A stretch of 64,000 nt of DNA, taken from NCBI GenBank assembly GCA_017522615.1, contig JAFWYR010000006.1, positions 2,866 to 66,865 on the forward strand, given 5' to 3'. Shown piece after piece: positions 9,339 to 50,704 of the stretch. Positions within the stretch are counted from its first letter, which is position 1. Every line of letters begins with the position of its first letter. The position numbers and the translations under genes are program-made. Under the pieces are notes generated by a model, which did no database searches, was not told the DNA's origin, and worked only from the letters and a program-made list of their open reading frames with translations. Origin of the DNA: Bacilli bacterium (GTDB taxonomy: Bacteria; Bacillota_I; Bacilli_A; RF39; UBA660).

Positions 9339-9370
9339 AAACTAGAGAACTCACTCTAGTTTTATTTTTT
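9339..9370 (+). terminator. Intrinsic terminator, either for uvrA or the antitoxin-toxin spacer of a type III TA locus
   Basis: aaactagag-aactca-ctctagttt 9-bp stem followed by a T-rich run. Confidence 0.65.
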
Positions 9371-9450
9371 CTTTATAGGATAGTAATGCTTATTCCATAA
9401 GATGTTGAAGAACAAATGTACATATGCTATATTTTGGCTAGGGGGTAAAA

Positions 9451-16555: not shown

Positions 16556-16557
16556 AT

Positions 16558-17672: not shown

Positions 17673-17709
17673 AAAAAACAAATAATGTGATACAATATTG
17701 TCAATAGCT

Positions 17710-17904
17710 TTGAAAGAGGACAAAACTGTTAAGAAGTATTTTAAAGAGAGTTTGGAAAATGGTGTGACCCAAATAAACAACCTTAATAGCTACTACCTCT
17801 GAGCTGACATAATAGTCCGGTAATTCCGTTATCATAATGAAGTTATAAATGAGGATGGTACCGCGCATAAAGCGCTCCTTGCTTTTAGAAGCAGGGAGTT
17901 TTTT
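17710..17904 (+). promoter_or_regulatory. T-box riboswitch leader, threonine specificity
   Basis: Promoter -10 tacaat at 17691-17696. AGAGA-type box at 17743-17750. Thr codons ACU-ACC at 17792-17797 (and ACC at 17767-17769). T-box motif aaatgaggatggtaccgcg at 17847-17865. Terminator ctccttgct/agcagggag plus T6 at 17875-17904. Confidence 0.85.
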
Positions 17905-17926
17905 AATTATTAGGGGGAATGGTTAA

Positions 17927-18319
17927 ATGACAAAGAAAGAATTAAAAAGATGCTCATCTATGAGTATGAATCATTTTTTGAGAACGTATTATGGATTAAG
18001 TGATGATTTAGCTGAAAAACTATCTATGCATTCGCACAAATCTTTAAGAGAAGTTGCTAAATTATATGAAATACCACTAAAAAAAATAGGTTTCCAAGAT
18101 GTCACTAGAGAAATGATAGCTGTAGGAGATGTGTTACTAATAATGGATCATTTTGGTAATCCCGCACCATATGTTAACCCATATGCGATTTTAGAAGACG
18201 AATACGAAACTACCATGGATGAAAGGTATATTTCATACGAAGTATATGATTTAAATGAAGGAGAAGATGATTATGATAAATATCAAGGAAGACAAAAAGT
18301 TAAACACTTTAAACCATAG
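17927..18319 (+). CDS. Hypothetical 130-aa protein between the T-box and thrS
   Basis: Good RBS (aggggga). Acidic C-terminal half. Overlaps the thrS start in a different frame. No family recognised. Confidence 0.5.
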   Translation: MTKKELKRCSSMSMNHFLRTYYGLSDDLAEKLSMHSHKSLREVAKLYEIPLKKIGFQDVTREMIAVGDVLLIMDHFGNPAPYVNPYAILEDEYETTMDERYISYEVYDLNEGEDDYDKYQGRQKVKHFKP

Positions 18320-20033: not shown

Positions 20034-20060
20034 ATACTTGTGTTTTTATTATATTTTTTT

Positions 20061-20342
20061 CTAATTGTTATTCATGTTAGAAACTATTTTTTCTAAATTT
20101 ACTTTAAATGCTTTTTCATCTTCATCGACATATCCCATAAAGAAAATATGTTCAATTTGATCGTGGTTAAAAAGAATCGATTTATCAGTGAAAATTACAC
20201 CTTCAGGATATAAACAACCACAATAGTCAAATAATTGATTGTTAGTTTCTTCTGACTTACAAGCAAATCCAGTAATCATAAGTCTCTTTCTACCACCTTT
20301 AAGAATAACAATTGTACCAATAGGTAAATATTTATCTATCAT
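20061..20342 (-). CDS. DUF4176-family protein (T7SS-associated accessory protein), copy 1
   Basis: KYLPIGTIVILKGGRKRLMITGF...FDYCGCLYPEGV...LFNHDQIEHIFFMGY. A clear paralog of 33405-33794. Confidence 0.75.
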   Translation of the reverse strand: MIDKYLPIGTIVILKGGRKRLMITGFACKSEETNNQLFDYCGCLYPEGVIFTDKSILFNHDQIEHIFFMGYVDEDEKAFKVNLEKIVSNMNNN

Positions 20343-20836
20343 CTTTTGACACCTCTTTCTTGAATTCCGTATTTTTGCATTAAATCTTCATCGCCAATTT
20401 CTTCTAAATATTCTTTAATAGGGTAAACACTTAATAGTTCTTGAGCTCCAAGACCTTTAGCTTTACAATAACAAGATAAAATGTGCATAGCCATAGTCAT
20501 TTTATGATCGTCATCAAATAATAATTCTTGTAAAGTTTGAACTTTTTCAGGACTATTATCAATAAGATTTTCTATCGCATTAAATTCGACATTAGCATTG
20601 TTCATTTGTGCATATAAATCTTGTAAAAAATCTTTGCAATTAACAAAAGCAGATTTTTTCAAACTAAAGAACCCAGACTTTTGGATTTTAGAATCTAAAA
20701 CTCCAATAGTTCTATCTGTCGTTATCTTTGCTTTATAATATTGCCAAACAATATTTTTTAAATATTTAGCTTCAAAATTTTCTATCGTATATTTACCGTG
20801 TAATATTTCGTCTTCAAATTTAGTAATCTCATCCAA
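20339..20836 (-). CDS. Hypothetical 165-aa soluble protein (candidate chaperone or immunity partner)
   Basis: Overlaps the downstream DUF4176 gene by 4 nt and follows the Gly-zipper gene by 10 nt. No TM segment. No family recognised. Confidence 0.5.
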   Translation of the reverse strand: MDEITKFEDEILHGKYTIENFEAKYLKNIVWQYYKAKITTDRTIGVLDSKIQKSGFFSLKKSAFVNCKDFLQDLYAQMNNANVEFNAIENLIDNSPEKVQTLQELLFDDDHKMTMAMHILSCYCKAKGLGAQELLSVYPIKEYLEEIGDEDLMQKYGIQERGVKR

Positions 20837-20846: not shown

Positions 20847-22232
20847 TCAAATCACTCTAGTATGACTAACACTAGTATTATTTATAGTCTGAACACTTAA
20901 CTCGTTGTAAAGATTATCGAAAAAGGTTTTAACCTCAGGTTTTTTAGAAACAGAACGTCCAGAACGTTCGATAGTTCCATCTATAGATTTACAAATTCTA
21001 CTAGCAATTTCTTTATCGATGTTATCCGCACTTTTAGGAGTAAAATCAACACCTTCCACATCAAATACACTAAGATCATCAGGAACCAAAGAATCTCTTA
21101 CACTTTCAGAAGAATTAAGTTTAGTTGCAAGCTTGGGAATTGTACCGTAATTAAGTCCAGCCGCAAGACCGCCAAAGATAGGAAAAGCTACCATACTAGC
21201 TATACCACCATTTTTATCAAAGGCTTGAGCTACATCTCCATAATAAAATGAATCGACAACTGTTCCAGAAGACCATACGAGCTCGGCATTTGTAGCACCT
21301 ATCCTAACAGCTTGTCCAAGTGAAGTAACTCCTCCTAAAGCTCCACCACCAAAATAGGTTACACCACCAGCAAAAATTCCTTTTCCTAAAGAAGCAGCGT
21401 ACATTCCAACCTGTTCATCTGAGGTTAAAAATCTCTCACCATTATTAGATAATACTTTATATTTATTTGAATAATCAGAACCCATAGTAAGTAGTCCAAC
21501 AGAAGCAGCAGAGCCGGCTGGACCAAGAAGTATTCCGGACCCTATTATAATACCCATATCTCCACCAGCGCGTCCGACAAGTTTAATATTATTAAAAATC
21601 ACATCATCATATTTTATAAGAGAATAATGATCAATATAAGCGCCAAAGGGCGTATATTTGTAAAATTCTTTAGTAGCTTCGTCCACTATATTTGTAGCAA
21701 TTAAGTTTTGAAGATCATGAACGTGTTGATCGGCATCATTAGTACCTAAAATAGCATCACCAATTGCTGAAACTCCATGAACAAAAGGAACACCAACTAA
21801 AGAAAAAGCCCCATCTATCAAAGTTTCACCAGCATTATAAATACCATTTTTTAGAGCTATATCACTAGCCACAATTGTAGATACAATACTATTTAATCCA
21901 TCTGATATTGGTTGAAGTTGTTCATCAGTTATGCCTCTAACATTAGGATCATGAGTCCCAGTTGAAGTAGTAATAGTAGGCATAGCAGTTTTTTGATTAT
22001 TATTTGAATTACTTGTGTTTGAAGAAACATTAGATAAATTAGAATATTTCGGATTAGTTATATCAACGGTGGCTTCGGGTAAAGGATTACCTAAATTAGA
22101 ATTTGAATAATCTAACTCGAAATCAGGAGTGTTATCAGTAACTGATACGTAATTCAATTTAGTAGTTGAAGTAGTTGTCTTATTAAAATTTATTTTAACA
22201 TTATTGTAATTTAACTTTTTAATGTCACCCAT
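20847..22232 (-). CDS. Glycine-zipper-rich protein: candidate T7SS membrane-active effector or membrane component
   Basis: 461 aa. N/S/T-rich N-terminus without a signal peptide. Three Gly-rich hydrophobic blocks at aa 219-362 (GGDMGIIIGSGILLGPAGSAASVGLLTMG; GKGIFAGGVTYFGGGALGGVTSLG; GGIASMVAFPIFGGLAAGLNYG). Confidence 0.55.
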   Translation of the reverse strand: MGDIKKLNYNNVKINFNKTTTSTTKLNYVSVTDNTPDFELDYSNSNLGNPLPEATVDITNPKYSNLSNVSSNTSNSNNNQKTAMPTITTSTGTHDPNVRGITDEQLQPISDGLNSIVSTIVASDIALKNGIYNAGETLIDGAFSLVGVPFVHGVSAIGDAILGTNDADQHVHDLQNLIATNIVDEATKEFYKYTPFGAYIDHYSLIKYDDVIFNNIKLVGRAGGDMGIIIGSGILLGPAGSAASVGLLTMGSDYSNKYKVLSNNGERFLTSDEQVGMYAASLGKGIFAGGVTYFGGGALGGVTSLGQAVRIGATNAELVWSSGTVVDSFYYGDVAQAFDKNGGIASMVAFPIFGGLAAGLNYGTIPKLATKLNSSESVRDSLVPDDLSVFDVEGVDFTPKSADNIDKEIASRICKSIDGTIERSGRSVSKKPEVKTFFDNLYNELSVQTINNTSVSHTRVI

Positions 22233-26674: not shown

Positions 26675-26751
<77 letters not shown>

Positions 26752-26855: not shown

Positions 26856-28082
26856 GTGTCAAAAATAAAAGATATAATAGCTCGTGAAATATTAGATTCA
26901 AGAGGAGATCCAACTGTAGAAGTCGATGTAATATTAGAAAGTGACATAATGGGAAGAGCTTCAGTTCCATCAGGAGCTTCAACAGGTATAAGAGAAGCTT
27001 TAGAACTAAGAGATAAAAATCCTGAAAGATATGGCGGGAAAGGTGTATTAACTGCTGTAAATAATGTAAACACAGTAATAAAAGAAGCTTTAATCGGAAT
27101 GGATAGTTTAGATCAAGAAGCTATCGATAGAAAAATGATAGAATTAGATGGTACTGAAAATAAAAGTAAATTAGGCGCAAATGCAATGTTAGGTGTTTCC
27201 ATGGCCAACTTAAAAGCAGCCGCAAACTATTTAAAAAAACCACTATATAAATATGTCGGCAAAGAAAGAACCATGCCAAAAGCTATGATGAATATTTTAA
27301 ATGGAGGCAAACATGCCGATAATGGATTAGATTTCCAAGAGTTTATGATAATACCTGAAGGAAAAACATTTTCAGATAGACTTGAAAGAGGTTGCGAAGT
27401 ATTTCATAGTCTAAAAAAAATACTCAAAGAAAAAGGTTTAAGTACCAATGTTGGCGATGAAGGAGGGTTTGCTCCTAATATAAGTAATAATAAAGCTGCA
27501 TTAAATTTACTAGTAGATGCGATTGAAAGAACTGGACTTATGCCAGGAAGAGATGTCAATATCGGATTAGATGTCGCTGCTAGCGAATTCTATGAAGATG
27601 GAAAATATAAATTAAAGGGAGAAAATAAAGAATACACTAGAGATGAATTAATTGAATATTATAATCAGCTAGTTAACGAATATCCTATAGTATCAATTGA
27701 AGACCCAGTTGAACAAGATGATTTTGAAGGCTTTACTAAAATAACCGAAATTTTAGGTGATACAGTACAATTAGTTGGTGATGATCTGTTTGTTACTAAC
27801 AAAAAATACCTAGAAAAAGGTATCAATATGAATGCTGGTAATGCAATTTTAATAAAAGTAAATCAAATAGGAACTATTACCGAAACAATCGAAACAATAA
27901 ACTTAGCTAAAGAAAATAATTATAATACGATTATTTCTCACAGAAGTGGAGAAACCGAAGATACAACTATTGCCGATCTTGCAGTAGGCTTAAATATGGG
28001 GCAAATAAAAACGGGATCTTTATCTAGAACAGATAGAATTTGCAAATATAATGAATTACTAAGAATCGAGGAAGAATTATGA
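26856..28082 (+). CDS. eno: Enolase, GTG start, C-terminally short
   Basis: [34 protein letters not shown], ends ...[12 protein letters not shown]-stop. It lacks the ~17 residues that follow this motif in typical bacterial enolases. Confidence 0.95.
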
Positions 28083-28441
28083 AAAAAAATGGTTTTACAT
28101 TGATCGAGTTAGTTGGAACAATAGTTATATTGTCACTAGCTCTAATTATAGTTGTGCCAACAGTAACCAAAAATGTTAGAAACGGGATGATAGATGCTGA
28201 TACAAACGCTAAATCATCTATTGAACTTGCTGCTAAAAACTGGGCAACAGACAATATGGGAACAGTTGGTGAATCATATTGTGTTAAAGTGTTAGATCTT
28301 CAAAATCAAGGATATCTAGATAAAAATTTAAAAATGCCTTCCAACGGCAACGCAAATATTAATAATGCCGGAGTAAGGATAGGAATTAAAGCAGGAACAG
28401 ATAAAAAAACATACACATACAAGTATGTTGAAAGCTGTTAA
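28079..28441 (+). CDS. Type IV pilin / pseudopilin, translationally coupled to eno
   Basis: ATGA start/stop overlap with eno. MKKNG|[20 protein letters not shown]. Two Cys (SYCV ... VESC-stop). Paralog of 2391-2780. Confidence 0.85.
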
Positions 28442-28539: not shown

Positions 28540-31500
28540 ATGATTATATATTTGATTAGACAAAACGAAATTGTGTCGATAAAAGTAGCCTCTGAATATA
28601 AAGGAAACTATTGGATTAAATGCAAGAACGACAGTGCAAAAAGCGTCAACTTGATTAATATAGAAGTAACAGAAGGATCATATGTTGCAAAAAGTAATGA
28701 AGATGCATCTATTGAAATAAATGGTGCACATGTAGAGTCAGCTAACTTGAATATGCATAACTTTTACACCATCAAAACAAAAAAAGAAAAAATGCTTCTA
28801 TATACTATGCCTCTTTATGATAATTCATTTAGAAAATACTACATCAAATCCGATAACATAACGATAGGAAAAACCGATAGCAATATAATAGTATATGGTT
28901 TAGAACTAATATCGGATAATCATGCGACTATTATTAAAACTGAAGAAGGATTAGAAATTGTTAGTAATGAAAGTGCATTTGGAGTATATGTCAACAAAGA
29001 AAAAGTTGGAAGAAAAAAATTAGAGGTTGGAGACTCTATATTTATAGCAGGACTAAGAATAATATATATGGGTGAGTTTTGGTTGATTAATAATCCAAAC
29101 AACATGCTAAAATTAAATTATCAAGTTATAGAAGAAAAACAAGATGTATTTGAAGAAACCACAAATGAAATAAAATCAGATCCGTATATGCAACTATATT
29201 CTGAAAGTGATTATTTTGAAAAAGCCCCAAGATTCATAACAGAATTTGAACCACAAAAAGTAGTGATAGATCCACCACCAAACAAACAAAACACCGAAGA
29301 AATGCCACTTTTATTAACAATCGGACCTATGATGACTATGGCAATAACTTCGATGGTAACAGCGTGGCAAGTAATAAGTAATATGGCAAACGGAGCTGAT
29401 ATTAAAACAGTTTTGCCTTCTCTAATCACTGTAATAGCTATGATGATGACAATGTTATTATGGCCAATTCTATCATCTAAATATCAAAAAAAGAGATCTA
29501 AGCAAAAAGAAGCTGAAAGACAAGAAAAATATCAAAAATACTTGTTAAAAAAGAAGATTGAAATTCAAAATTTAATGAAAAGAGAAAAACAAATAGTAAT
29601 CGACAACAATGTACCTTTGGAAGAATGTCAAAACATAATAATTAATAAAAAAATAAATCTTTGGGAAAAAGAAATATATCAAAAAGATTTCTTGACAGTA
29701 AGATTAGGAATTGGTTCTGTAAAACCAAGCATAGATATCTCATATCCTGAAGAACATTTCACAATGGAAGAAGATAATTTAAAAGATCTTTTAAGTAGAA
29801 CAGTCAAATACGATGAATATATAAAAGAAGTACCAATAAGTATTTCACTTATAGAGAAAAAAATATCAGAAATCAGAGGGGAAGAAAAATTAGTAGGTCA
29901 TTTCTTAGATAGTATATTATTACAATTAATGACATTTCATAGCTATAGAGATCTTAAAATAATAATATTAAAATCAGAAGAAGATGAAAGACTCTCATAC
30001 ATGAAAATGTCACAGTATCTATTTAGTGATGACATGCTAATAAGATTTTACGGAGACAACATAGATGATATTGAACAAATATCAAACTATTTAACTAGAA
30101 TATTTGATTCGAGATTGACAAATGAAAATGTAAAAGCCGAAAACTTTAAAAACTATAATACCTATTATCTAATATTAGCCGATAATGATATAAAAATAAA
30201 ACATACAGGAATAGTAAAAAAAATATTAGAAACAGAATTGAATTTTGGATTTAGCGTTATATTTTTAAGTAATAATTTATCATCATTGCCAAAAGAATGT
30301 ACAACCTTTATAACAATTAGTGGTGAAAACGGAAAAACATCAGGTTACTTTGAAAATGAATTAATAGCAGGCAAACAAAAACAATTTATCGCTGACCTTA
30401 ACTATAGTAATAGAGTTAATCTGCCAAAATGTGTTGAAGCACTAAATAAAATTCCACTAAGAAAAAAAGATAATTTGGAAAAAATGCCAAAAACAATTTC
30501 ATTTTTAGAATTATATAATGCTGGAAAAGTAGAACAACTTAATGTCGAATATAGATGGAAAAAGAACGATCCAACATTAACCTTAAACGCACCAATAGGA
30601 ATAGATGAAAATGGATCAATTTTCAAATTAGACTTACACGAAAAAAGACATGGTCCGCACGGACTTATAGCCGGAATGACAGGCTCTGGAAAATCAGAAT
30701 TTATTATTACTTATATCCTTTCGATGGCCATTAATTACCATCCTTACGAAGTATCATTTGTATTGATAGACTATAAAGGTGGAGGATTAGCTGGTGCCTT
30801 TGAAAATAGAAAAACAGGGTTAGTTTTACCACATCTAGCGGGAACTATAACCAACCTAGATATATCTACAATGAATAGAGCTCTTGCATCAATACATAGC
30901 GAACTTCAAAGAAGACAAATACTATTTAATGAAGCAAGAGAACAATTAGGTGAAAGTACAATAGATATTTATAAATATCAAAGATTTTATAGAGAAGGAA
31001 AGGTTGATAAACCAATTTCTCATCTAGTGATAATATCAGACGAATTTGCTGAATTAAAACAACAAAGACCAGAGTTCATGACAGAACTAATAAGCGCAGC
31101 AAGAATCGGAAGATCACTAGGAGTTCACTTAATACTTGCAACTCAAAAGCCAAGCGGAATCGTCGATGATCAAATATGGTCAAACAGTAAATTTAGAGTA
31201 TGTTTAAAAGTTCAAGATAGATCAGATAGTAACGATGTAATTGGAAGGCCAGATGCAGCCGCCTTAATTGATGTTGGAAGGTTTTATCTTCAAGTTGGAT
31301 ACAATGAACTGTTTGCTCTAGGCCAGTCAGCTTATTCAGGAGCTTCATATTACCCTCAAGATAAAATGCAAAAAAGAACAGATACATCGATTAATTTTAT
31401 TGATAATATTGGAAATACAATAAAAACATCAGATGACAATATTATTACAGTAAAACCAAGTGGAGAAGAATTAACAAACATTGTTAAATATCTTATATCT

Positions 31501-33144
31501 ATATCAGCAGAAAATAACATTAAAGTTGACAAATTATGGCTCGACCAGCTTAGAAATATAATTTATGTAGACGAATTAAAAAGAAAATATGGTTACACAC
31601 CGACAAAAAATATTATTAATCCGATAATAGGAGAGTTTGACGACCCAGGACGTCAGAGACAAGGATTATTAACTTTACCTCTTTCCGAAGACGGTAATAC
31701 TATAATATATGGTGTTGCAGGTAGTGGTAAACAAGATTTACTATCGACAATGATATATTCAATTATTACCGAACACGATGCATCTGAAGCAAGTTTATAT
31801 ATCTTAGATTTTGGCTCTGAAATATTAAAAATGTTTTCACAAGCACCTCAAGTTGGAGAAGTTGTTTCGATAGATGAAGAAGAAAAAGTTCAAAACTTAT
31901 TTAAAATGTTAAATACCGCAATAGAATATAGAAAAACATCTTTAGAAAAATATAATGGTGATTTTAAATTATATAATCAAAAGGAAGAAAAAAAACTTGC
32001 AACATATATTGTCATAATTAATAACTATGAAGCATTTTCTGAAAGTTATGAAGAATGTAATAATATGCTAGCAGTTCTTTCAAGAGAAGGATTAAAATAT
32101 GGAATAATATTTGTATTAGCATGCTCAGCAAGTAATGCTGTAAGATATAGAATATCACAGAACTTTAAACAACTTATCCCATTACAATTAAACGATCCAT
32201 TAGATTACCGAACAATTTTAGGTAAAACCGGAGGAATAATTCCATCAGATAATGTTGGTAGAGGATTAATAAAAATGGACGGCGTATATGAGTTCCAAAC
32301 TGCAATAATAGCTGATAGAGAAAGTCAATTTGAATATGTAAGACAAGTGTGTAAGGAATTAAGCATCAAAAGCAAATATAAAGCAACCAGTATACCAGTA
32401 TTACCTGAAAGAATTTCAATCAATCTACTTAAGCAATACATAAGTCCAAAAACAAATGGATATTTCCCAGTCGGAATATACAAAGATGATCTTAAAGTAG
32501 CATATCAAAATATTAAAAATAATATAGGAACTATAGTTTCTTCAATTGATCAAGATGCATTCGCAAACTTTATAAATCCTTTAATTAGAGAATTTATAAT
32601 AACAAATAAAGTAATCGTAATAGATGCCATGGAAATGGTAGAAAAAGATGACACATTTAATTATCATAACACTAAATTTGATGAAACCATCGATGAATTA
32701 AATAACTATATAGAAAAATTATATAATCAATATTCATCACATAACTATGACGCATCAACCATAGAAAAAGAGGAAAATATTATATGTGTTATATCTGGCG
32801 TTGGAAACCTACTAAATAGGATAAAAAGCGAAACAAAAGAAAAATTTGAAAATATGTTCACAAAAGATGCCGAGGTAAAAAAAGTATGGTTTGTTATAGT
32901 TGATACTGCAACTAATTTAAAGAGGGTAGAATTTGATAATTGGTATAAAGCAGCTATAACTCAAAATGCCGGAATTTGGATAGGAAATGGTATCAATGAT
33001 CAATCAGTCATCAAACTTGCAAAATTAGTACCAAACGGCAATATAGAAATTAAAAATAATTATGGATATGTTGTCAATAAAGGTAACGCACAATTTACAA
33101 AATTGTTAGAAGGTGAAATGGATGGAAAACAAAATACTAATTGA
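28540..33144 (+). CDS. essC: T7SSb EssC/YukB-type FtsK/SpoIIIE ATPase with N-terminal FHA-like domains
   Basis: 1534 aa. FHA-like ITIGKTDSNIIVYG...DNHATII...GVYVNKEKV. Two TM helices (aa ~255-310). P-loop D1 GMTGSGKS with Walker B LVIISDEFAEL, D2 GVAGSGKQ, D3 without a P-loop. Confidence 0.9.
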   Translation: MIIYLIRQNEIVSIKVASEYKGNYWIKCKNDSAKSVNLINIEVTEGSYVAKSNEDASIEINGAHVESANLNMHNFYTIKTKKEKMLLYTMPLYDNSFRKYYIKSDNITIGKTDSNIIVYGLELISDNHATIIKTEEGLEIVSNESAFGVYVNKEKVGRKKLEVGDSIFIAGLRIIYMGEFWLINNPNNMLKLNYQVIEEKQDVFEETTNEIKSDPYMQLYSESDYFEKAPRFITEFEPQKVVIDPPPNKQNTEEMPLLLTIGPMMTMAITSMVTAWQVISNMANGADIKTVLPSLITVIAMMMTMLLWPILSSKYQKKRSKQKEAERQEKYQKYLLKKKIEIQNLMKREKQIVIDNNVPLEECQNIIINKKINLWEKEIYQKDFLTVRLGIGSVKPSIDISYPEEHFTMEEDNLKDLLSRTVKYDEYIKEVPISISLIEKKISEIRGEEKLVGHFLDSILLQLMTFHSYRDLKIIILKSEEDERLSYMKMSQYLFSDDMLIRFYGDNIDDIEQISNYLTRIFDSRLTNENVKAENFKNYNTYYLILADNDIKIKHTGIVKKILETELNFGFSVIFLSNNLSSLPKECTTFITISGENGKTSGYFENELIAGKQKQFIADLNYSNRVNLPKCVEALNKIPLRKKDNLEKMPKTISFLELYNAGKVEQLNVEYRWKKNDPTLTLNAPIGIDENGSIFKLDLHEKRHGPHGLIAGMTGSGKSEFIITYILSMAINYHPYEVSFVLIDYKGGGLAGAFENRKTGLVLPHLAGTITNLDISTMNRALASIHSELQRRQILFNEAREQLGESTIDIYKYQRFYREGKVDKPISHLVIISDEFAELKQQRPEFMTELISAARIGRSLGVHLILATQKPSGIVDDQIWSNSKFRVCLKVQDRSDSNDVIGRPDAAALIDVGRFYLQVGYNELFALGQSAYSGASYYPQDKMQKRTDTSINFIDNIGNTIKTSDDNIITVKPSGEELTNIVKYLISISAENNIKVDKLWLDQLRNIIYVDELKRKYGYTPTKNIINPIIGEFDDPGRQRQGLLTLPLSEDGNTIIYGVAGSGKQDLLSTMIYSIITEHDASEASLYILDFGSEILKMFSQAPQVGEVVSIDEEEKVQNLFKMLNTAIEYRKTSLEKYNGDFKLYNQKEEKKLATYIVIINNYEAFSESYEECNNMLAVLSREGLKYGIIFVLACSASNAVRYRISQNFKQLIPLQLNDPLDYRTILGKTGGIIPSDNVGRGLIKMDGVYEFQTAIIADRESQFEYVRQVCKELSIKSKYKATSIPVLPERISINLLKQYISPKTNGYFPVGIYKDDLKVAYQNIKNNIGTIVSSIDQDAFANFINPLIREFIITNKVIVIDAMEMVEKDDTFNYHNTKFDETIDELNNYIEKLYNQYSSHNYDASTIEKEENIICVISGVGNLLNRIKSETKEKFENMFTKDAEVKKVWFVIVDTATNLKRVEFDNWYKAAITQNAGIWIGNGINDQSVIKLAKLVPNGNIEIKNNYGYVVNKGNAQFTKLLEGEMDGKQNTN

Positions 33145-33373
33145 TGTTATAGTTCCAATTTTAGAAGAAAATTACAACGTATTTATTCCAGTAGGAAAAA
33201 CAGTTAAAAGTATTGAAGAACAACTTAAAAAGTGTATCGCAGATCTATCCCTAGGTGCGATAAACGAAAAACAAATAATGAGACTCTATGATTCTGACGG
33301 AAAAATAATAGATAGTAATTGTTATATAAAAGATTCAGGAATAAAAAATGGAAGCAAAGTAATATTAGTATAA
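33122..33373 (+). CDS. esaB: EsaB/YukD-like ubiquitin-fold T7SS protein
   Basis: 83 aa, overlaps the essC end. The pattern IDVIVPIL..NYNVFIPVGKTV...SGIKNGSKVILV is typical of YukD beta-grasp proteins. Start set at 33122 (RBS gaaggtg). Confidence 0.75.
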   Translation: MENKILIDVIVPILEENYNVFIPVGKTVKSIEEQLKKCIADLSLGAINEKQIMRLYDSDGKIIDSNCYIKDSGIKNGSKVILV

Positions 33374-33404
33374 ACACATTAAAATGAAATAGGAGGATTT
33401 TAAA

Positions 33405-33794
33405 ATGAGTGAAGAAAAAACAGAAGAAATAATCGAAACTTTAGAAACTGAAGAAAAACCAAAAGATAGCGATATACCTAACAAATACTTACCAATAGGA
33501 AGTGTTGTAACATTAAAAAATGCGATAAAAAGCTTAATGATTATTGGTTACTGCCCAGTTACTAATAATAACGAATTATTTGACTATTGTGGGGTATTAG
33601 TACCTGAAGGCTTACTTGAATCAGATAAATTTATAGTATTTAATCATAATGTCGTTGAAAAATTACACTTTCTAGGATTACAAAACGAAGAACAAAAAAA
33701 GTGGGAAAACACTGTTGAAGAAATGGCTAAAAACGCTATTAATAATAGTTATACGCAAGAAAACACAAGCAATAATCAAAATATAGAAAATTAG
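33405..33794 (+). CDS. DUF4176-family protein, copy 2 (with acidic N-terminal and N-rich C-terminal extensions)
   Basis: KYLPIGSVVTLKNAIKSLMIIGY...FDYCGVLVPEGL...VFNHNVVEKLHFLG. Confidence 0.75.
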   Translation: MSEEKTEEIIETLETEEKPKDSDIPNKYLPIGSVVTLKNAIKSLMIIGYCPVTNNNELFDYCGVLVPEGLLESDKFIVFNHNVVEKLHFLGLQNEEQKKWENTVEEMAKNAINNSYTQENTSNNQNIEN

Positions 33795-33880
33795 ATATTA
33801 AATACTTAAAATTAAACCATTTCTATTGAATTTTTAATCTGAAAAAGATATAATTATAATAATGAAGGGAGGTGTAAGTA

Positions 33881-34534
33881 ATGAGAATAGATATTCCACA
33901 TATGCGTAGTACCTTAGCTGATTTAAAAAAAGAAGGTAATAGTTATGTAAATACAATTGTACAATTGTATCAAGAAGTATATTCAAAATTAGACCCATTG
34001 GATGTATCATTACCATGGGCAGGTCCACAAGCAGGTAACTTTATAAATGAAGTTAGATCAATGGAACCTACTTTCTTAAATATAACTGAGACACTACAAC
34101 AAGCAACTGATTCGTTAGCAACTCACATTTCTGCATGGGGAAGTTTGGAAACAACGATGCAACAAGATGAATTATTTGAAAAATATCATCCTGAAACAAT
34201 ACAAGAAGCATCACATAAGAAAGATGGTAATGATGCTGTAACAAACGCAGCAGAAGTAAACATGAATTTTGAACCAGAGCAGGTTGAAGCTTTAAGGGCA
34301 AAAATCATTGATTTAGGTGAGATGATTAACAAATTGTTTGCCAATATTACTGGACCAATTTTGTCAAATGTTAAACAATATTACGAGTCTGATGCATCAA
34401 CTTCATATCAAAATAAAGTTGAAAACGCATCAAACGAAGCTAATAACGCGATGAAGAAGGTCATAAACAGATTTGATTATTGGTTAGCAGAAGCTAAAGC
34501 TGCTTACAATAAACAAGATCAAAATCTTATTTAA
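33881..34534 (+). CDS. Tandem WXG100-like protein (two helical-hairpin modules fused)
   Basis: 217 aa, strong RBS gggaggtg. First module has W46-A-G48 (34016-34024) at the expected turn. Second module (from about aa 125, MNFEPEQVEALRAKIIDL...) has the same helical layout without WXG. The C-terminus contains AYNKQD (YxxxD). Confidence 0.65.
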   Translation: MRIDIPHMRSTLADLKKEGNSYVNTIVQLYQEVYSKLDPLDVSLPWAGPQAGNFINEVRSMEPTFLNITETLQQATDSLATHISAWGSLETTMQQDELFEKYHPETIQEASHKKDGNDAVTNAAEVNMNFEPEQVEALRAKIIDLGEMINKLFANITGPILSNVKQYYESDASTSYQNKVENASNEANNAMKKVINRFDYWLAEAKAAYNKQDQNLI

Positions 34535-34537
34535 TTA

Positions 34538-34593
34538 ATAGAAAATCATATTGATTTTCTATGAGTGAAGATTCAGTCTTTGCTCATAGAAAA
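34538..34593 (+). promoter_or_regulatory. Pair of mutually exclusive hairpins between the WXG gene and downstream genes
   Basis: atagaaaatca (34538-34548) pairs with tgattttctat (34552-34562). Alternatively ttttctatgag (34555-34565) pairs with ctcatagaaaa (34583-34593). Both stems are 11 bp and share 34555-34562. Confidence 0.5.
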
Positions 34594-34617
34594 TTGATAT
34601 AAAAGGAGATGAAATAT

Positions 34618-35043
34618 ATGAGTCACCCACTAGCATATAACACACCATGCGAAAAAAATGGAAGCCATAGGGCACCAGACCCAATAGATTTGAGTGAAAT
34701 AGATTCTGCTGTTGAACAAGCTAAATCAGTTGTTGAATCGTTAAAGGCAGCTGCATCAATTTCAGCCAACGGCTTAATTAAAGGCTCAACATTTACAGAT
34801 ACAATAGATATGGCCAAGTCTGTTACTGATGCTATTGATAATAGTATTAATTCGATTATTACGGAAATTGGTAATATGAAATCATCAATTGAAACAGAAG
34901 TAGACGCAATATATTCAAAAGAACAGGCTGCTGCAGAAGCGTTAAATAGTGAAGATAGGCGAGCAGCACAAATTAGACGTCAAGAAGAACAAGCAAGAAT
35001 TGCAGCTATGCAAGCTGAGGCGACAATGCAGCATTATTCATAA
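34618..35043 (+). CDS. Small alpha-helical protein (WXG100-/Lap-like candidate T7SS substrate or targeting factor)
   Basis: 142 aa from the ATG at 34618 (RBS aaggag). Heptad-like helical sequence and a Q/R/A-rich C-terminus. No WXG motif. Confidence 0.5.
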   Translation: MSHPLAYNTPCEKNGSHRAPDPIDLSEIDSAVEQAKSVVESLKAAASISANGLIKGSTFTDTIDMAKSVTDAIDNSINSIITEIGNMKSSIETEVDAIYSKEQAAAEALNSEDRRAAQIRRQEEQARIAAMQAEATMQHYS

Positions 35044-35067
35044 CAATACGAAAGGGGAGGAATATAT

Positions 35068-37038
35068 ATGCCAAGTGAACCATGGTATGGCAATGCGTTA
35101 GCAAACACAGGGCCTAAAGTCAAATCTACGATGTCAGACGGAAATGGCGGAACATATTCTTTTTTGGAAGATGGTACAACTAGGTATACAGTAGATACAA
35201 GTCGCTCTGTAAATCCAACCGCTAGCGGATCAGGAGTAGTAGATACTAACACATCACGTTATAAAACCTACGATACAACAACTTTAATGCCACAATACTT
35301 AGATAAAGGTAATGGTAGTACATTATATAATTCAAATATTAATGGAGAATATGCCGATAGACTTCAAAATGAAAATAGAAAAAGACAACTATATGTACAA
35401 CAACAGGAATATAATAATTTATACAACAAAGCTAAAGAAAAAAATGCTCAAGGTATATTTGAATATTATCCTGATGAATTAGCTAGGGCAATTTTAGGAA
35501 TTAATGATGCCCTTACATTAATTGAATCTGCAAAAAGTTCAATACAGGCAATAAGTACTGCAGCTTCTAGCGCATGTTCTAAACATAATGCAGAATTAGC
35601 AAACGATCATTATCTAAAAGAAAGATGTGGGGATGCTAACTTAAGTTCTAAAATTCAATCATCAGCATCATCAGTTTCTAATAGTATATCTTCAGTAACT
35701 TCAGCTATAAATAATGTAACTAATAAGCTAAGTGCATTTTTACAAAAAGCTGGAATAGTTGACGACGTCGTTAATCAAGCAAACCAAATAATTAATTCTG
35801 TAAATAATTCAAATGCCGGATATGCAGGAACTCCATTAATTTCATTACTTAATGATAGTTCAATTGTTAATGGTTACCAAGAAATCGGTGAAGCAAAAGT
35901 AGGTGGAGGAATCACCATACCTGTATATAGTCCATCAAAACGTGCTCAATATAGTACTGAACACTTAAGTCAAGCTGCTCTTTACAAAACAGGTCTAATG
36001 TTTGAAAATGGTGTTCTTAATGGACTTGAGTCCTTATCTGACGCAGCATTATGGCTTGGTGCCAAATGCGTTGAACTTAAATACTTCCCATTAACGCACT
36101 TCACATCTGTTGGAAAAGCCGCAATGAATAATGTATATGGTTTTATACAGGAAGATCATACAGCAAACTTGCTAAAGAGCCAAACAAATAGTGGTATGGG
36201 CGGTTATTATGAGCGAATTGTTTTTGATCCTTTAAAAAACGATGGAGGACTATTTAAATCAGGTTCTAAACTTATCGAAACAGCTACCACGTCATACTTG
36301 ACAGGTAAAATAGTAAAAGCCGTAAATTTTTTAGGTACCATGGAACAAGAAGCTACAATAGGAGCCAAAAGTTTACAATCAGCTGAAGGAGCAGAAGTAA
36401 TTGAACAAGGAGCAGTAAAAGGAGCTCAAACTGCCGAAACAGCTGCAACTGAGGGAACTGAATTAGCAGAAAAAGGATCAAATTCATTTATTAATAGACT
36501 TAGAAGTGAACTACCTGATACAGGAAAGGCGACAAAAAAGACAATAGATTTTTCAAAAGGAACTTCAGAAAATATGGAAAGTAGAGCTAAAAATAATCCA
36601 GGTATTGATCCGGAATATAATTCAACCACTTCAGCAGTTGAAGAATTAGCAGAAAATATAACAGGAAAAGTGGCAGAAAAAGTTCCAGTGCCAGGATTAA
36701 ATAAGGATGCTGGTACCATAATAACAGATAAAATGAATTTAGGAACTGTCGAAAAAGATCTTGTTAAAAAAGGTGTAAATATGACAACAGAAGCTGCATT
36801 GGGAAGCGTCCCTGAACCAGTAAAAGCATATACCGATATAGATGGTTATTTAAGCTCAAGAGTTTATGATATACCTGAAGCAGCAGCAGCAGCACCGGGA
36901 GCTTTAAACAATGTGAGAAATGAAATAGCTAGTGCTATGAATATTGATATAAATAATCCTGATCCTAGAAATGCAAATGAACCAGTAAATACAACTGCCT
37001 CTGGAACATCGCAAGACACACATAATTTAATACCATAA
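35068..37038 (+). CDS. Large (656 aa) candidate T7SS substrate of unknown function
   Basis: RBS ggggagg. No signal peptide or TM segment. Long S/A/N-rich helical segment (aa ~150-235). Motif ENGVLNGLESLSDAALWLGA resembles KNGIYNAGETLIDGAFSLVG in the 20847-22232 protein. No toxin domain recognised. Confidence 0.5.
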   Translation: MPSEPWYGNALANTGPKVKSTMSDGNGGTYSFLEDGTTRYTVDTSRSVNPTASGSGVVDTNTSRYKTYDTTTLMPQYLDKGNGSTLYNSNINGEYADRLQNENRKRQLYVQQQEYNNLYNKAKEKNAQGIFEYYPDELARAILGINDALTLIESAKSSIQAISTAASSACSKHNAELANDHYLKERCGDANLSSKIQSSASSVSNSISSVTSAINNVTNKLSAFLQKAGIVDDVVNQANQIINSVNNSNAGYAGTPLISLLNDSSIVNGYQEIGEAKVGGGITIPVYSPSKRAQYSTEHLSQAALYKTGLMFENGVLNGLESLSDAALWLGAKCVELKYFPLTHFTSVGKAAMNNVYGFIQEDHTANLLKSQTNSGMGGYYERIVFDPLKNDGGLFKSGSKLIETATTSYLTGKIVKAVNFLGTMEQEATIGAKSLQSAEGAEVIEQGAVKGAQTAETAATEGTELAEKGSNSFINRLRSELPDTGKATKKTIDFSKGTSENMESRAKNNPGIDPEYNSTTSAVEELAENITGKVAEKVPVPGLNKDAGTIITDKMNLGTVEKDLVKKGVNMTTEAALGSVPEPVKAYTDIDGYLSSRVYDIPEAAAAAPGALNNVRNEIASAMNIDINNPDPRNANEPVNTTASGTSQDTHNLIP

Positions 37039-37044
37039 AAGACG

Positions 37045-38724
37045 TTAATTTTTAACGCCTTTTTTTACATCCATTATAACTGGTAATATAATAGGTTTTC
37101 TTCCAGTATGTAAGCTTATATAATCACTTAAGTTTTTAATAATGTCGAATTTAATTTCTGTATAATTGACGCCAGTTTTAATTTTATTGTTAATTGAATC
37201 CTTTGCAATATTTTCAAGTTTCTTAAGTAATTCTATATTATCGTTAACTAAAACAAAACCTCTTGTAATAATATTTGGAGTAGTAAGTAATTTATTCTCT
37301 TTCAAATCCATATTTACAATAACTACGACAATACCATCATTAGCCATAATCTTTCTATCTCTCATAACCGCACTGCTAACTTCACCAATTCGGTTACCAT
37401 CAACGTAATTATCACCTGCTTGAACATAACCAGCTTTTTTTATTACACCATTTTTCATAGATAAAACATCACCATTACCTAAGACAAAAGTGTTCTCACG
37501 TGGAACATCACAACTAACCGCAATATCCGCATGTTTTTTAAGCATTCTATATTCACCGTGAAATGGCATAAAATATTTTGGATTAATAAGCCTTATCATC
37601 CATTTAAGTTCTTCTTCATTACCATGTCCAGATGCATGAATATCAGATAGAGATGTGTTAGTATAAACAGTAATTCCTTTAAGATAAAGTCTATTAATTG
37701 TTCTAGATATACTAAGTGCATTACCTGGGATAGCTGAAGAAGAGAAGACAACTATATCATCACTTCTAAGCTTAATATGTTTATGAGTTCCATTTGCAAG
37801 TCTACTTAATGCAGCTAATGGTTCACCTTGAGTTCCGGTACATAAAATACATATTTTATTAGATGGAAGTTTATTGGCCTCATCAGGAGTCACAAACAAC
37901 TCTTTATGTTTAATATATCCACCTTCAATAGATATTTCTATATTATTTTCCATACTTCTTCCGAAAACCGCAATCTTTCTTCCGTGTCTTTTACAAGTAT
38001 CGACAATATGTTTTAAACGGTAAATATTAGAAGCAAACGTTGCAATAATAATTCTACTATCATGTCTAGTAAATAATTCATCCAAAGCATCGTCTACTTT
38101 AGATTCGCTGTTACTAACTCCTTCATTTAAAGCATTTGTACTATCACTAAGTAGCAAAGTAACACCTTTACTTCCAAGTCTTGCAATTTTATGTAAATCA
38201 GCTATCGGACCAATTGGTGTCAAATCGAATTTAAAGTCTCCAGTAGTAACTACAGTTCCATTTGGAGTATGAACCACAACTCCATGAGAATCAGGAATAG
38301 AGTGAGTAGTTCTATAAAATTCTACCGAAACTTCTTTAAATTTGTATACGTTTTTTTCATTATAAACAAATAAATTATTATATTTAATACTTCTATCTTC
38401 GAGTTTCTTCTTAATTAAAGCTGCAGCTTGATTAGGCGCATATATAGCCGGAATATTAACCTCAGATAGTAAAAATGGTATAGCCCCAATATGATCTTCG
38501 TGACCGTGAGTTATAAATAATCCTTTAATTTTAGATTCGTTTTCCTTTAAAAATGTATAATCTTGAATAACGTAATCGATTCCCATAAGTTCAGAACCAG
38601 GGAATATCACACCCGCATCGATAATAATAATTTCGTCATTATGCATTACGCAGTACATATTTTTTCCAACTTCTCCAAGTCCACCTAAAGCGAATATGTA
38701 AGAAGTATCTTTATAAAATTTCAT
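37045..38724 (-). CDS. rnj: Ribonuclease J
   Basis: 559 aa. MBL/beta-CASP HGHEDHIG and the N-terminus IFALGGLGEVGKNMY. Confidence 0.95.
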   Translation of the reverse strand: MKFYKDTSYIFALGGLGEVGKNMYCVMHNDEIIIIDAGVIFPGSELMGIDYVIQDYTFLKENESKIKGLFITHGHEDHIGAIPFLLSEVNIPAIYAPNQAAALIKKKLEDRSIKYNNLFVYNEKNVYKFKEVSVEFYRTTHSIPDSHGVVVHTPNGTVVTTGDFKFDLTPIGPIADLHKIARLGSKGVTLLLSDSTNALNEGVSNSESKVDDALDELFTRHDSRIIIATFASNIYRLKHIVDTCKRHGRKIAVFGRSMENNIEISIEGGYIKHKELFVTPDEANKLPSNKICILCTGTQGEPLAALSRLANGTHKHIKLRSDDIVVFSSSAIPGNALSISRTINRLYLKGITVYTNTSLSDIHASGHGNEEELKWMIRLINPKYFMPFHGEYRMLKKHADIAVSCDVPRENTFVLGNGDVLSMKNGVIKKAGYVQAGDNYVDGNRIGEVSSAVMRDRKIMANDGIVVVIVNMDLKENKLLTTPNIITRGFVLVNDNIELLKKLENIAKDSINNKIKTGVNYTEIKFDIIKNLSDYISLHTGRKPIILPVIMDVKKGVKN

Positions 38725-40402: not shown

Positions 40403-42157
40403 ATGTTTGGAAAAATTATATATATAAGTGATACAGAGGCTCACGTAGAAGTACCTACAGATGGTTCATTATCAACAAACATCATGAATATGCATGTAAT
40501 ATTTGAAGACGAGGGAAGAAAAGTCGTCGGAGAAGTAGAAGACCTAGGTGCAGAAATAATTAAAATAAGATTTCTAGGAGAAATAGAAAATGGAAGATTT
40601 GTAGGAGGTGTTATTAGAAAACCTACATTTCATTCAAATATAAGAATGATAAGCCAAGAAGAAGTAGGGTTATTATTAGGTGATGATACTCCATCTACAT
40701 TCATTATAGGAGAAAGTCCTTTATATGATAGTAGACCAATAAGAACAGATATAAATGATTTATTTGCCAGTCACATGGCTATATTTGGTAACAGTGGTTC
40801 TGGTAAATCATGCGGAGTAGCTAGATTACTTCAAAACGTATTTGAAAATCCGAAAATGCTGCCATTTAGATCTAATTTCTTTATATTTGATGCTTACGGA
40901 GAATACCACAATGCTCTTCAAGGAATAGATAAGATAAATCCTAACTTAAATTTTAAATTCTATACGACAAATACTCAGCAAACAGATGGAGAAGTATTAA
41001 GTATTCCGTTATGGTTACTCGATATCGATGATATGGCACTACTTCTAAGAGCGGATAAACATTCTCAGTTAACAATAATAGAAAGAATGCTTAAACTAGT
41101 AAACATCTTTGCCTCAGATGATGATATGTCAGTAAGATATAAAAATCACTTAATTGCCAAAGCAATAATGACTATTTTATACACTAATCAAACTTCTAGT
41201 AGTAAACGTAATGATGTGTTTAAAATATTAGCTACTTGTTCAACTGAGCAGTTTAACCTAGAAGCTCCAGTTCAAGGAATAGGATATACTAGAAAATTTA
41301 GAGAATGTTTTACAATTGATACCCAAGGAAACTTTCCAGAAAGTATATTAATGACCGAATACATAACTGGATTTATCGATGAATCACTAGATACATATGA
41401 GCCAAAAGAAATAAAATTCTTTACTCTAGAAGATTTAGAAAAAGCCCTAGAATTTACATTAATTAGTGAAGGTTTATTAAATAACGAAGAAACATATTCA
41501 GATGCTATCACTTTAAAAGTTAGATTACACTCATTAACCATATCAGAAAACTCTCAATATTTGAGATTCCCTAACTTCATTACAATAGAAAACTATATCG
41601 CATCTTTAGTAGCTAAAAATGGAAGAAAAGCTCAAGTAATAAACTTCAACCTAGAAGATGTTGAAGATTGGTTCGCTAAAGTAGTAACTAAAATATACAG
41701 TAAAATGTTATTTAACTTCTGCAAAAGATTAACCAATAGAGCTTCAATTCCATTCCATATCTTCGTCGAAGAAGCTCATAGATATGTTCAAAACGATGGT
41801 GACGTCGACTTAATTGGATATAACATATTTGAAAGAGTAGCCAAAGAGGGAAGAAAATACGGAATAATATTTAACCTAATTTCTCAAAGACCAGTTGAAA
41901 TATCAGAAACTGTTATATCTCAGTGTGCAAACTTCTTAATATTTAAATTAAACCACCCAAGAGATGTCGAATACATAAGAAAAATGTTACCAAACATCAG
42001 TGCTGAAATAGTAGAAAAACAAAAATCACTTCAACCTGGAACATGTATGGCCTTTGGAAGTGCCTTTAAAGTCCCAACTATAGTTAGAATGAAAATGCCA
42101 GATCCTGCCCCTTCAAGTAACAGCTGTGATGTTGTAAAAACATGGCAAGCAAATTAA
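40403..42157 (+). CDS. HerA-like (DUF87, HerA/FtsK superfamily) ATPase with N-terminal HAS-barrel
   Basis: HAS-barrel-like GKIIYISDTEAHVEV...VVGEVEDLGAEIIKIRFLGE. Walker A GNSGSGKS, Walker B HIFVEEAHRY, and LISQRP...QCANFLIFKL. Confidence 0.75.
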   Translation: MFGKIIYISDTEAHVEVPTDGSLSTNIMNMHVIFEDEGRKVVGEVEDLGAEIIKIRFLGEIENGRFVGGVIRKPTFHSNIRMISQEEVGLLLGDDTPSTFIIGESPLYDSRPIRTDINDLFASHMAIFGNSGSGKSCGVARLLQNVFENPKMLPFRSNFFIFDAYGEYHNALQGIDKINPNLNFKFYTTNTQQTDGEVLSIPLWLLDIDDMALLLRADKHSQLTIIERMLKLVNIFASDDDMSVRYKNHLIAKAIMTILYTNQTSSSKRNDVFKILATCSTEQFNLEAPVQGIGYTRKFRECFTIDTQGNFPESILMTEYITGFIDESLDTYEPKEIKFFTLEDLEKALEFTLISEGLLNNEETYSDAITLKVRLHSLTISENSQYLRFPNFITIENYIASLVAKNGRKAQVINFNLEDVEDWFAKVVTKIYSKMLFNFCKRLTNRASIPFHIFVEEAHRYVQNDGDVDLIGYNIFERVAKEGRKYGIIFNLISQRPVEISETVISQCANFLIFKLNHPRDVEYIRKMLPNISAEIVEKQKSLQPGTCMAFGSAFKVPTIVRMKMPDPAPSSNSCDVVKTWQAN

Positions 42158-42195: not shown

Positions 42196-42270
42196 GTCCA
42201 GATAGTTTAATGGATAAAATATTCCCCTCCGAAGGGAAAGATAGGAGTTCGATTCTCCTTTTGGACGCCA
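42196..42270 (+). tRNA. tRNA-Arg (anticodon CCG), CCA encoded
   Basis: GTCCAGA-TA-GTTTAATGGATAAAAT-A-TTCCC-CTCCGAA-GGGAA-AGAT-AGGAG-TTCGATT-CTCCT-TTTGGAC-G-CCA. Acceptor and D stems each contain one G-U pair. Confidence 0.8.
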
Positions 42271-47058: not shown

Positions 47059-47135
47059 GGCCTGTTGGTGAAGTGGTTCAACACACCGCCCTCTCAAGGC
47101 GGCATTCACGGGTTCAAATCCCGTACAGGCTACCA
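47059..47135 (+). tRNA. tRNA-Glu (anticodon CUC), CCA encoded
   Basis: GGCCTGTTGGTGAAGTGGTTCAACACACCGCCCTCTCAAGGCGGCATTCACGGGTTCAAATCCCGTACAGGCTACCA. Anticodon stem CCGCC/GGCGG with loop CTCTCAA. Terminator at 47146-47169. Confidence 0.8.
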
Positions 47136-49315: not shown

Positions 49316-49410
49316 ATTTATCATCCCCTTTTTAAAATTAGGACTAGATTTTATCCTAAATATATTATATAATAGATTTGAGATAAAAACAATCGGAAAA
49401 GGTGAAAAAA

Positions 49411-50688: not shown

Positions 50689-50704
50689 TAGAAAGGGGAA
50701 AATT

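Follow-up and report, generated by a model that had tools for sequence, protein, structure and literature searches.

Type VII secretion systems (T7SSs) share three near-universal parts, a WXG100 protein (TsxA), a ubiquitin-like protein (TsxB) and an ATPase (TsxC), to which accessory proteins are added that vary by subtype (PMC11217815). Subtypes T7SSc-j were described from RefSeq isolates by Garrett, Higginson and Palmer in 2024; variants without the T7SSb accessory proteins are already documented, and T7SSg and T7SSh always adjoin Tad pilus genes (PMC11217815). For B. subtilis, Oka et al. (2025) described a core unit in which YukD is clamped between the FHA and DUF domains of the ATPase YukB, and the YukC pseudokinase dimer docks on FHA2 and the linker. 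The modelled YukB hexamer encloses a central channel inside a crown of YukC; the structure itself gave no hexamer, and the authors suspected missing components (PMC12637312). The composition of the T7SSb channel and the roles of EssA, EssB and EsaA are still open questions, hence the interest of a reduced locus such as the one analyzed here, which occupies positions 28540-37038 of a 64,000-nucleotide stretch (the window) of contig JAFWYR010000006.1 from a Bacilli bacterium. We consider it probable that this locus is a reduced, T7SSb-related T7SS whose conserved core consists of EssC, a ubiquitin-like protein and an EsxA/EsxB-like WXG100 pair. It may be the simplest natural version of a T7SS. 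Its six open reading frames (ORFs) were all confirmed, with lengths in amino acids (aa):

28540..33144 (+): essC (tsxC), 1534 aa; TIGR03928, Pfam FHA and FtsK_SpoIIIE, AlphaFold model of the N-terminus
33122..33373 (+): predicted ubiquitin-like protein, 83 aa (EsaB/YukD/TsxB analogue); AlphaFold fold and position
33405..33794 (+): DUF4176 protein, 129 aa; PF13780
33881..34534 (+): apparent fused WXG100 pair, 217 aa; TIGR03930 and ESAT6_2 on the halves, homologous separate genes in relatives
34618..35043 (+): 141-aa protein of no family; ORF only
35068..37038 (+): 656-aa orphan protein; ORF, presumed cargo from its position

A preliminary description, made from the letters of the window, had read this array as an essC-first T7SS locus headed by an EssC/YukB-type ATPase, and most of its gene assignments stand. 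The DUF4176 ORF carries the family named, and the 656-aa ORF is real and an orphan. The ORF given there as 142 aa exists, but it encodes 141 aa from the ATG at 34618 or 144 aa from 34609.

EssC matches the NCBIfam equivalog TIGR03928 (T7_EssCb_Firm) over residues 223-1522 with an E-value of 3.9e-300 and 998.8 bits against a cut-off of 778.4, and Pfam recognizes an FHA domain at residues 107-167 together with FtsK_SpoIIIE. Its best solved relative is B. subtilis YukB (9qks_G, 402 bits), and structures of EccC and EssC are matched as well. The alignment with YukB begins at residue 211, and the N-terminal 210 residues gave no sequence-level alignment to YukB. This part was modelled with AlphaFold (residues 1-240, built from 32 homologues), which returned two beta-sandwich domains at a predicted local distance difference test score (pLDDT) of 86.9, with block means of at least 86 up to residue 200. 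The top three Foldseek matches of the model, each over about 218 columns, are tandem-FHA N-termini, from YukB (9qks_H), from the EssC of Geobacillus (5fwh) and from that of S. aureus (1wv3). As modelled, the N-terminus is a tandem FHA of about residues 1-200, as in T7SSb. Hydrophobic stalk helices follow at about 256-279 and 291-312, and then the DUF/stalk region; at a hydropathy threshold of 1.6 only the second helix passes, and the first is placed from the alignment. Three ATPase modules complete the protein. Walker A motifs are found in D1 (GMTGSGKS at 712) and D2 (GVAGSGKQ at 1058), and D3 is without one. The gene has a ribosome-binding site, GGAGGGG, 4 nt ahead of its ATG.

Among 5.8 billion proteins searched, 265 homologues of EssC were found at an E-value of 1e-50 or lower. 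The best 120 of them are 41-65% identical to EssC and 1497-1573 aa long; more than 100 homologues in this identity range belong to uncultured "Bacilli" of the gut. Nearly all of the proteins are unnamed entries from metagenomes; one carries the annotation 'EssC [Bacilli bacterium]'. The mean identity of the 120 homologues to the window EssC is 74% in D1, 49% in D2, 32% in D3 and 32-35% in the FHA domains. In this set, D1 shows no variation at the Walker A residues checked, and the D2 lysine is retained in 117 of the 120. This pattern, with D1 highly conserved and D3 most variable, points to a functional motor under purifying selection with a fast-evolving substrate-recognition end. The protein also lacks an FtsK gamma domain, unlike the true FtsK encoded at 224-1264. 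We conclude that EssC is intact and of T7SSb type. In its second FHA domain (28855-28880, residues 106-114), the alignment of the 120 homologues shows that the Gly of the canonical GR loop and the S-x-x-H motif are kept, while Lys replaces the phosphate-binding Arg and Phe replaces the Asn of NG. From these substitutions, phosphothreonine binding would be partial at best.

The second gene overlaps essC by 23 nt if it starts at the ATG at 33122, which is preceded by GAAGGTG and is a better start than the GTG at 33113. Its 83-aa product was modelled as a ubiquitin-like beta-grasp with a pLDDT of 91.8, from a shallow alignment of six database matches. Compared with the PDB by fold, the model gave 417 matches at an E-value of 1e-3 or lower, and the top TM-scores belong to the ubiquitin-like domains of EccD (7npt_D8, 0.78; 4kv2_A, 0.74). 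There is no C-terminal Gly-Gly. On the other hand, no match to YukD was obtained with Pfam, phmmer or a profile search of the PDB, and hhalign gave a probability of 7% over the last 20 residues only. The protein, proposed earlier to be an overlapping YukD/EsaB-like ORF, is therefore YukD-like by its predicted fold and its position, including the overlap, and not by sequence family.

The 217-aa protein had been described as a double WXG100-like ORF. The homologues of its halves confirm this, but they also reveal what had been missed, namely the character of an EsxA/EsxB-like fused pair. TIGR03930 (3.6e-7) and ESAT6_2 (4e-5) fall on the two halves, both below the curated cut-offs. The N half (residues 1-92) corresponds to a separate 94-95-aa gene in the three closest relatives sampled (L021, 3e-15; L019, 8e-13; L014, 5e-12), and the C half (134-216) to the adjoining 94-105-aa gene (L019, 3e-10; L014, 1e-9; L021, 4e-8). 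Several of these separate genes are Pfam WXG100 members; those of L014 and L019 are Pfam-positive, and the link to L021 is weaker. The N half is EsxA-like with WAG at residues 46-48, and the C half is EsxB-like with YNKQD at 209-213. Of the seven aligned partners of the second type, six have YxxxD/E in the corresponding column (YQSQD, YDEED, YESAD, YEAAD, YRINE and YNKQD of the window); the one from L016 does not. WxG and YxxxD/E are thought to form a composite secretion signal (PMC12482557). Judged from these alignments, the 217-aa protein is two adjacent WXG100 genes fused. The separate neighbouring homologues and the YxxxD/E column suggest that the clade uses an EsxA/EsxB-like heterodimer pair, which in this species would be made as a single chain. 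An identical protein occurs on 14 metagenomic contigs, the longest shown being the 232-kb gut-metagenome scaffold XIEF21-1_SAMN15830016. A membrane-bound FtsK/SpoIIIE-family ATPase with multiple ATPase modules, here EssC, and a WXG100-family protein encoded with it are the features by which a T7SS is recognized in the broad sense, and the locus has both.

The same arrangement recurs in relatives. We inspected 11 distinct related loci (L007, L008, L011, L014, L015, L016, L017, L018, L019, L020 and L021), each with up to 10 kb of flank on either side. In all 11, essC is followed by a gene of 82-85 aa that overlaps it or begins within about 20 nt; six of these small proteins were aligned and are 30-64% identical to the 83-aa protein of the window. 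Next comes, in eight of the 11, a pair of genes of about 95-108 aa, at least one of which has a precomputed Pfam WXG100 match. L016 has three small genes of WXG100-pair size with no Pfam match, and L007 and L011 have only ORFs of 65-72 aa after the 82-85-aa gene (L007 also one of 175 aa). In L018 and L020 the four genes stand alone amid housekeeping genes such as LysM/PolC and DUF421/RNHCP. The other loci carry variable large Pfam-less proteins, extra WXG100 pairs or DUF4176 downstream of the cassette. The genes upstream of essC differ in every locus, and L017 has cargo-like genes before essC. No membrane protein family recurs beside essC across the 11 loci. With EssC diverged to 41-65% identity, the same architecture in 11 independent loci argues for a lineage-wide variant and not a local accident. 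Two observations concern mobility. In L014, the EssC of which is 58% identical, the cassette lies amid conjugation-type genes (1-9834 and 16265-20700) for a TraC-like protein, a TraG P-loop ATPase, NlpC/P60 and C39-like peptidases and a type IV secretion system (T4SS) coupling protein, and the cassette may thus travel on integrative conjugative elements. In L016, a serine recombinase gene lies just downstream of the cassette.

The T7SSb core of B. subtilis and S. aureus comprises YukE/EsxA, YueB/EsaA, YueC/EssA, YukD/EsaB, YukC/EssB and YukB/EssC. Neither EssB/YukC nor EssA nor EsaA/YueB was matched among the ORFs of the window with Pfam, nor, for the unknown ORFs, with NCBIfam, in agreement with the preliminary description. 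The scan covered the 53 ORFs that are not contained in a longer ORF of the other strand and whose translation had not already made their identity plain; phosphoketolase and enolase (precomputed Pfam) and the ribosomal-protein/rpoB ORFs at 56.4-63.3 kb (position and length only) stood outside it. None of the locus proteins after essC has a transmembrane segment, and the 217-, 141-, 165- and 656-aa proteins, being without a hydrophobic segment, cannot be membrane components. The only window proteins longer than 900 aa are EssC, UvrA and the ORF taken as RpoB by its position. In the 11 related loci, precomputed Pfam matches show neither PF10140 YukC nor a recognizable EssA or EsaA domain within 10 kb of essC.

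Two kinds of candidate from the related loci were considered and rejected. The 392-aa (L008) and 490-aa (L015) genes that follow the ubiquitin-like gene are not a divergent EssB, as they have no transmembrane segment and look like cargo. A 1017-aa protein of L015 is not a six-helix EsaA: its hydropathy profile has four overlapping marginal peaks (217-322), and its N-terminus is helical and LXG-like. The 392-aa and 490-aa proteins (L008, 14897-16075; L015, 14868-16340) belong to no Pfam family and look related by eye. Both begin with a helical, WXG/LXG-like N-terminus and also have a linker rich in Gly or Pro and repeats of a 'DE(I/V)LADDKY...IPDELK' unit, and they may represent a conserved cargo class of the variant.

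By homology at every step, the reduced system would work as follows. EssC would form a hexamer in the membrane, with a channel lined by two helices from each protomer. The ubiquitin-like protein would be clamped between the tandem FHA and DUF domains of EssC and would stabilize each protomer, as YukD does with YukB. The WXG100 unit would present its composite WxG and YxxxD/E signal to the variable D3 module, upon which the motor would be activated and the unit exported. The 656-aa cargo, held by the DUF4176 chaperone and possibly by the 141-aa protein, would leave by the same route, and a Gly-rich protein of 461 aa from a satellite module of the window would likewise be exported as cargo. The EssB crown, EssA and the wall-spanning EsaA would either be dispensable in this lineage or be replaced by unlinked non-homologous factors. 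The crossing of the cell wall has no explanation within this mechanism. A stronger claim is that the four-gene cassette is a complete and self-sufficient T7SS, with neither EssA, EssB and EsaA nor a functional replacement for them; we regard this as conceivable but rather doubtful. If it were true, an EssC hexamer with a ubiquitin-like clamp would suffice for the transport of folded helical proteins through a Gram-positive membrane, and this species would further have joined the EsxA/EsxB heterodimer into a single chain.

Several points weigh against a reduced system. Every sequence of the lineage is metagenomic, so secretion by any member is a prediction. The absence of EssA, EssB and EsaA covers about 64 kb out of a contig of 232 kb, and stretches of 20 kb in the relatives. 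No EssA was matched in the window with Pfam or NCBIfam, which is weak evidence for a small bitopic protein, as such proteins are hard to recognize by profile search and easily missed. For the T7SSb of staphylococci and Bacillus, the accessory membrane proteins count as core components (PMC11217815). Moreover, both FHA domains are present in EssC, and since in B. subtilis they also touch the YukC pseudokinase, a distant or unrecognized partner may still exist. The same FHA domains hold the ubiquitin-like protein (PMC12637312), and so a system without EssB could still keep them.

Some of these points also speak for a rival explanation, in which the locus belongs to an ordinary T7SSb whose essA, essB and esaA genes have been relocated on the chromosome; the machine would be canonical and its gene order alone unusual. 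The tandem-FHA N-terminus, which in B. subtilis contributes to the surface that YukC binds, is still there and is modelled with confidence; the bit score of EssC exceeds the cut-off of the T7SSb equivalog; and our view is limited to 64 kb of the genome and the 20-kb windows of relatives. However, well-studied T7SSb organisms have their six core genes next to one another (PMC11217815). In contrast, none of 12 loci, with EssC down to 41% identity and in many chromosomal contexts, has the partners within 10 kb, so this explanation needs a stable unlinking across a deep clade. Furthermore, the WXG100 component is a heterodimer-type pair and not a single EsxA, and the first 210 residues of EssC could not be aligned to YukB by sequence. 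We therefore judge an ordinary T7SSb with unlinked partners to be unlikely.

Besides the presumed cargo genes of the locus, the window has a satellite module, whose 461-aa protein is encoded 6.3 kb from essC:

22232-20847 (-): 461-aa Gly-rich protein
20836-20339 (-): 165-aa protein
20342-20061 (-): DUF4176 protein; PF13780

The DUF4176 gene of the main locus matches PF13780 with an E-value of 6e-23, and the satellite copy (20061-20342), which is 45% identical to it, with 3.3e-26. DUF4176 proteins are effector-specific chaperones usually encoded directly downstream of their toxin (PMC12482557), and the DUF4176 protein of the locus is probably one as well. Of the parts of an LXG effector module (an LXG-domain toxin, Lap partners, a DUF4176 chaperone and an immunity gene), the chaperone is encoded twice in the window. 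No LXG or toxin domain was matched in the 656-aa and 461-aa proteins with Pfam or NCBIfam. The 141-aa protein has no Pfam or NCBIfam family, no hydrophobic segment and no homologue in the related loci compared; we infer that it is a candidate Lap-like partner of the effector. For the 656-aa protein, too, there is no family in Pfam or NCBIfam, no transmembrane segment and no homologue in the related loci compared. A single homologue, 75% identical, was found in 5.8 billion proteins, and none outside its own cluster in 1.84 billion representatives; from so few sequences neither fold nor activity can be inferred. No gene follows the 656-aa gene, as the RNase J gene converges 6 nt away, which leaves no candidate for an immunity gene. 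The protein is presumed to be secreted cargo from its position, and the lack of a recognizable LXG domain, toxin domain and immunity gene must be added to the points that count against a working reduced system. A central domain shared by the 656-aa and 461-aa proteins was considered and rejected (BLASTP E-value of 0.52).

In a second rival explanation, the missing partners have been replaced by unrecognized nearby proteins, for example the Gly-zipper protein at 20847-22232, which the preliminary description had put forward as a membrane partner. The 461-aa protein does have Gly-rich hydrophobic stretches, and it lies not far from essC and next to a gene of the T7-associated DUF4176 family. However, neither it nor the 165-aa protein matched any family, and BLASTP and phmmer found no convincing homologue of the 461-aa protein within 10 kb of essC in seven related loci (only marginal matches with E-values of about 0.03). 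No recurrent membrane family was seen in the 11 loci, and the cassettes of L018 and L020 have only housekeeping genes around them. An effector gene followed by DUF4176 is a known layout of toxin cargo (PMC12482557), and the satellite, as a module of its own with the second DUF4176 copy, is thus probably T7 cargo with its chaperone and not a component of the machine. We consider a nearby replacement highly improbable. The suggestion of a minimal or distinct T7SS variant fares better, as the architecture is the same in the 11 related loci and corresponds to no published subtype, but its Gly-zipper partner has to be given up. In the related loci, essC occurs with the 82-85-aa gene, and usually with the WXG100 pair, but not, in the seven compared, with a convincing homologue of the 461-aa protein. 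Between the 461-aa protein and the DUF4176 gene, the 165-aa protein (20339-20836, minus strand), of no family and without a transmembrane segment, could be an immunity or neutralizing factor for a membrane-active toxin.

The least probable explanation, a decaying or non-secretory remnant in which EssC is kept for DNA or conjugative transfer or the locus is inactive, can point to the cassette of L014 amid conjugation genes (TraG-like, T4SS coupling protein, NlpC/P60) and to the orphan cargo gene, but the EssC reading frame is unbroken across 120 homologues (1497-1573 aa), which conserve the Walker A motifs of D1 and D2, the EssC of the window has no FtsK gamma domain, the ubiquitin-like gene is always and the WXG100 genes with secretion-signal motifs are usually co-inherited, and the locus has a strong ribosome-binding site and translational coupling.

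If the reduced T7SS is real, a widespread natural lineage that has retained nothing but EssC, its ubiquitin-like partner and two WXG100 proteins would show what the minimal functional unit is and offer a small target for reconstitution and cryo-electron microscopy. It would also show which T7SSb parts serve the thick cell wall or regulation and not transport itself. The single-chain EsxA-EsxB fusion would be a test, set up by nature, of whether the two members of the WXG100 dimer travel together. As the lineage inhabits the guts of ruminants, rabbits and humans, the system probably influences competition in these communities.

The window is chromosomal DNA with a G+C content of about 29%. It includes the sporulation genes SpoVA, SpoIIIAH-like, GerM-like and GerE, genes for a replication-initiation domain and a DnaA/IstB-type ATPase, and genes for ThrRS, phosphoketolase, enolase, RNase J, FtsY, acetate kinase and NusG. 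At its right end, ORFs read by position as ribosomal-protein genes and rpoB lie behind an L10 leader. The T7 locus is flanked by enolase and a pilin-like gene on one side and by the convergent RNase J gene on the other. Megablast of the locus against plasmids gave no match, and promoter and terminator scans gave results no better than shuffled controls. A scan of GTDB genomes returned one relative, a metagenome-assembled genome (MAG) labelled 'uncultured Bacilli bacterium'. The G+C content across the cargo genes (34001-38000) is 33-34% against the 29% of the window; together with a different chromosomal context in every relative, this fits a mobile or frequently re-inserted island.

Some neighbouring genes are recorded here for completeness. 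A 120-aa prepilin-type gene (N_methyl, ComGC-like; 28079-28441, plus strand) overlaps the stop codon of the enolase gene; 98 nt separate its end from essC. Other pilin-like genes and a PilB-type ATPase are dispersed in the window (2391-2780; 47774-49468, minus strand; 49402-51154), and L017, L018 and L020 also have pilin or T2SSE genes within 10 kb of essC; this proximity may be a coincidence or a real link. A 584-aa HerA/DUF87-type ATPase (40403-42157, plus strand) follows ftsY, an 80-aa ORF and ylxM, the usual position of ffh, and in L020, ffh comes after genes for a DUF87 protein as large as this one and for a cadherin-like protein. Rfam identified the L10 leader (57640-57758) ahead of the ORFs taken as rplJ and rplL, and three tRNA genes (26678-26751, minus strand; 42196-42267; 47059-47132), all ordinary housekeeping features.

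When compared with the described systems, the locus is closest in its motor to the T7SSb of B. subtilis and S. aureus. The domain plan of EssC is the same, with tandem FHA, two membrane helices, DUF, three ATPase modules and a variable D3; a ubiquitin-like protein without a Gly-Gly end is encoded beside essC, and DUF4176-type chaperones accompany large cargo. The differences are that no EssB, EssA or EsaA gene is found in the window or beside essC in the 11 relatives, that the ubiquitin-like protein and the FHA region have no sequence-level match to YukD or YukB, and that the gene order is reversed. Instead of a single homodimeric esxA heading the operon, the relatives have two different WXG100 genes downstream of essC, with WxG on one product and YxxxD/E on the other, and here the two are fused.

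T7SSg (Acetivibrio, Paenibacillus) is the simplest published variant and resembles the locus in having two WXG100 proteins, the ubiquitin-like TsgB, the ATPase TsgC and few accessory genes; on the other hand, TsgC has no FHA, a beta-propeller protein TsgL (DUF5050) is encoded, and a full Tad pilus cluster is always adjacent (PMC11217815). Here, EssC has a tandem FHA, and the window contains neither propeller nor Tad cluster, only the scattered pilin-like genes. T7SSf and T7SSj of Clostridia share with the locus an FHA-bearing ATPase, which clusters near T7SSb, and the presence of TsxA, TsxB and TsxC. Their extra parts are, in T7SSf, a PPM phosphatase, TsfJ (a DUF6382-FHA protein) and an AAA+ ATPase that carries a TadZ-like domain and, in T7SSj, a kinase and a phosphatase together with the Ig-rich TsjI and others (PMC11217815). 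None of these accessory domains is encoded with the ATPase in the window or in the related loci. Likewise, no kinase/phosphatase pair, propeller or Ig-rich giant protein was found in the 11 related loci, and the sole Pkinase-PASTA gene, in L018, belongs to a kinase-rsgA-rpe cluster about 10 kb away.

The mycobacterial ESX systems (T7SSa) are similar in a different respect, as they have two different WXG100 proteins side by side, with WxG on one and a C-terminal YxxxD/E on the other, and the predicted fold of the 83-aa protein is closest by TM-score to the ubiquitin-like domain of EccD. However, EccB, EccD, EccE and MycP are missing from the locus, and EssC has the FHA that EccC lacks. Furthermore, the ubiquitin-like module is here a free protein, and the WXG100 pair is one polypeptide. 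The composition of the locus matches none of the published subtypes T7SSa-j (PMC11217815), and our literature search found no later T7SS subtype, no MAG-based description and no account of this lineage. Since the catalogue of T7SSs was built from RefSeq isolates, uncultured Bacilli were missed, and the present locus extends it.

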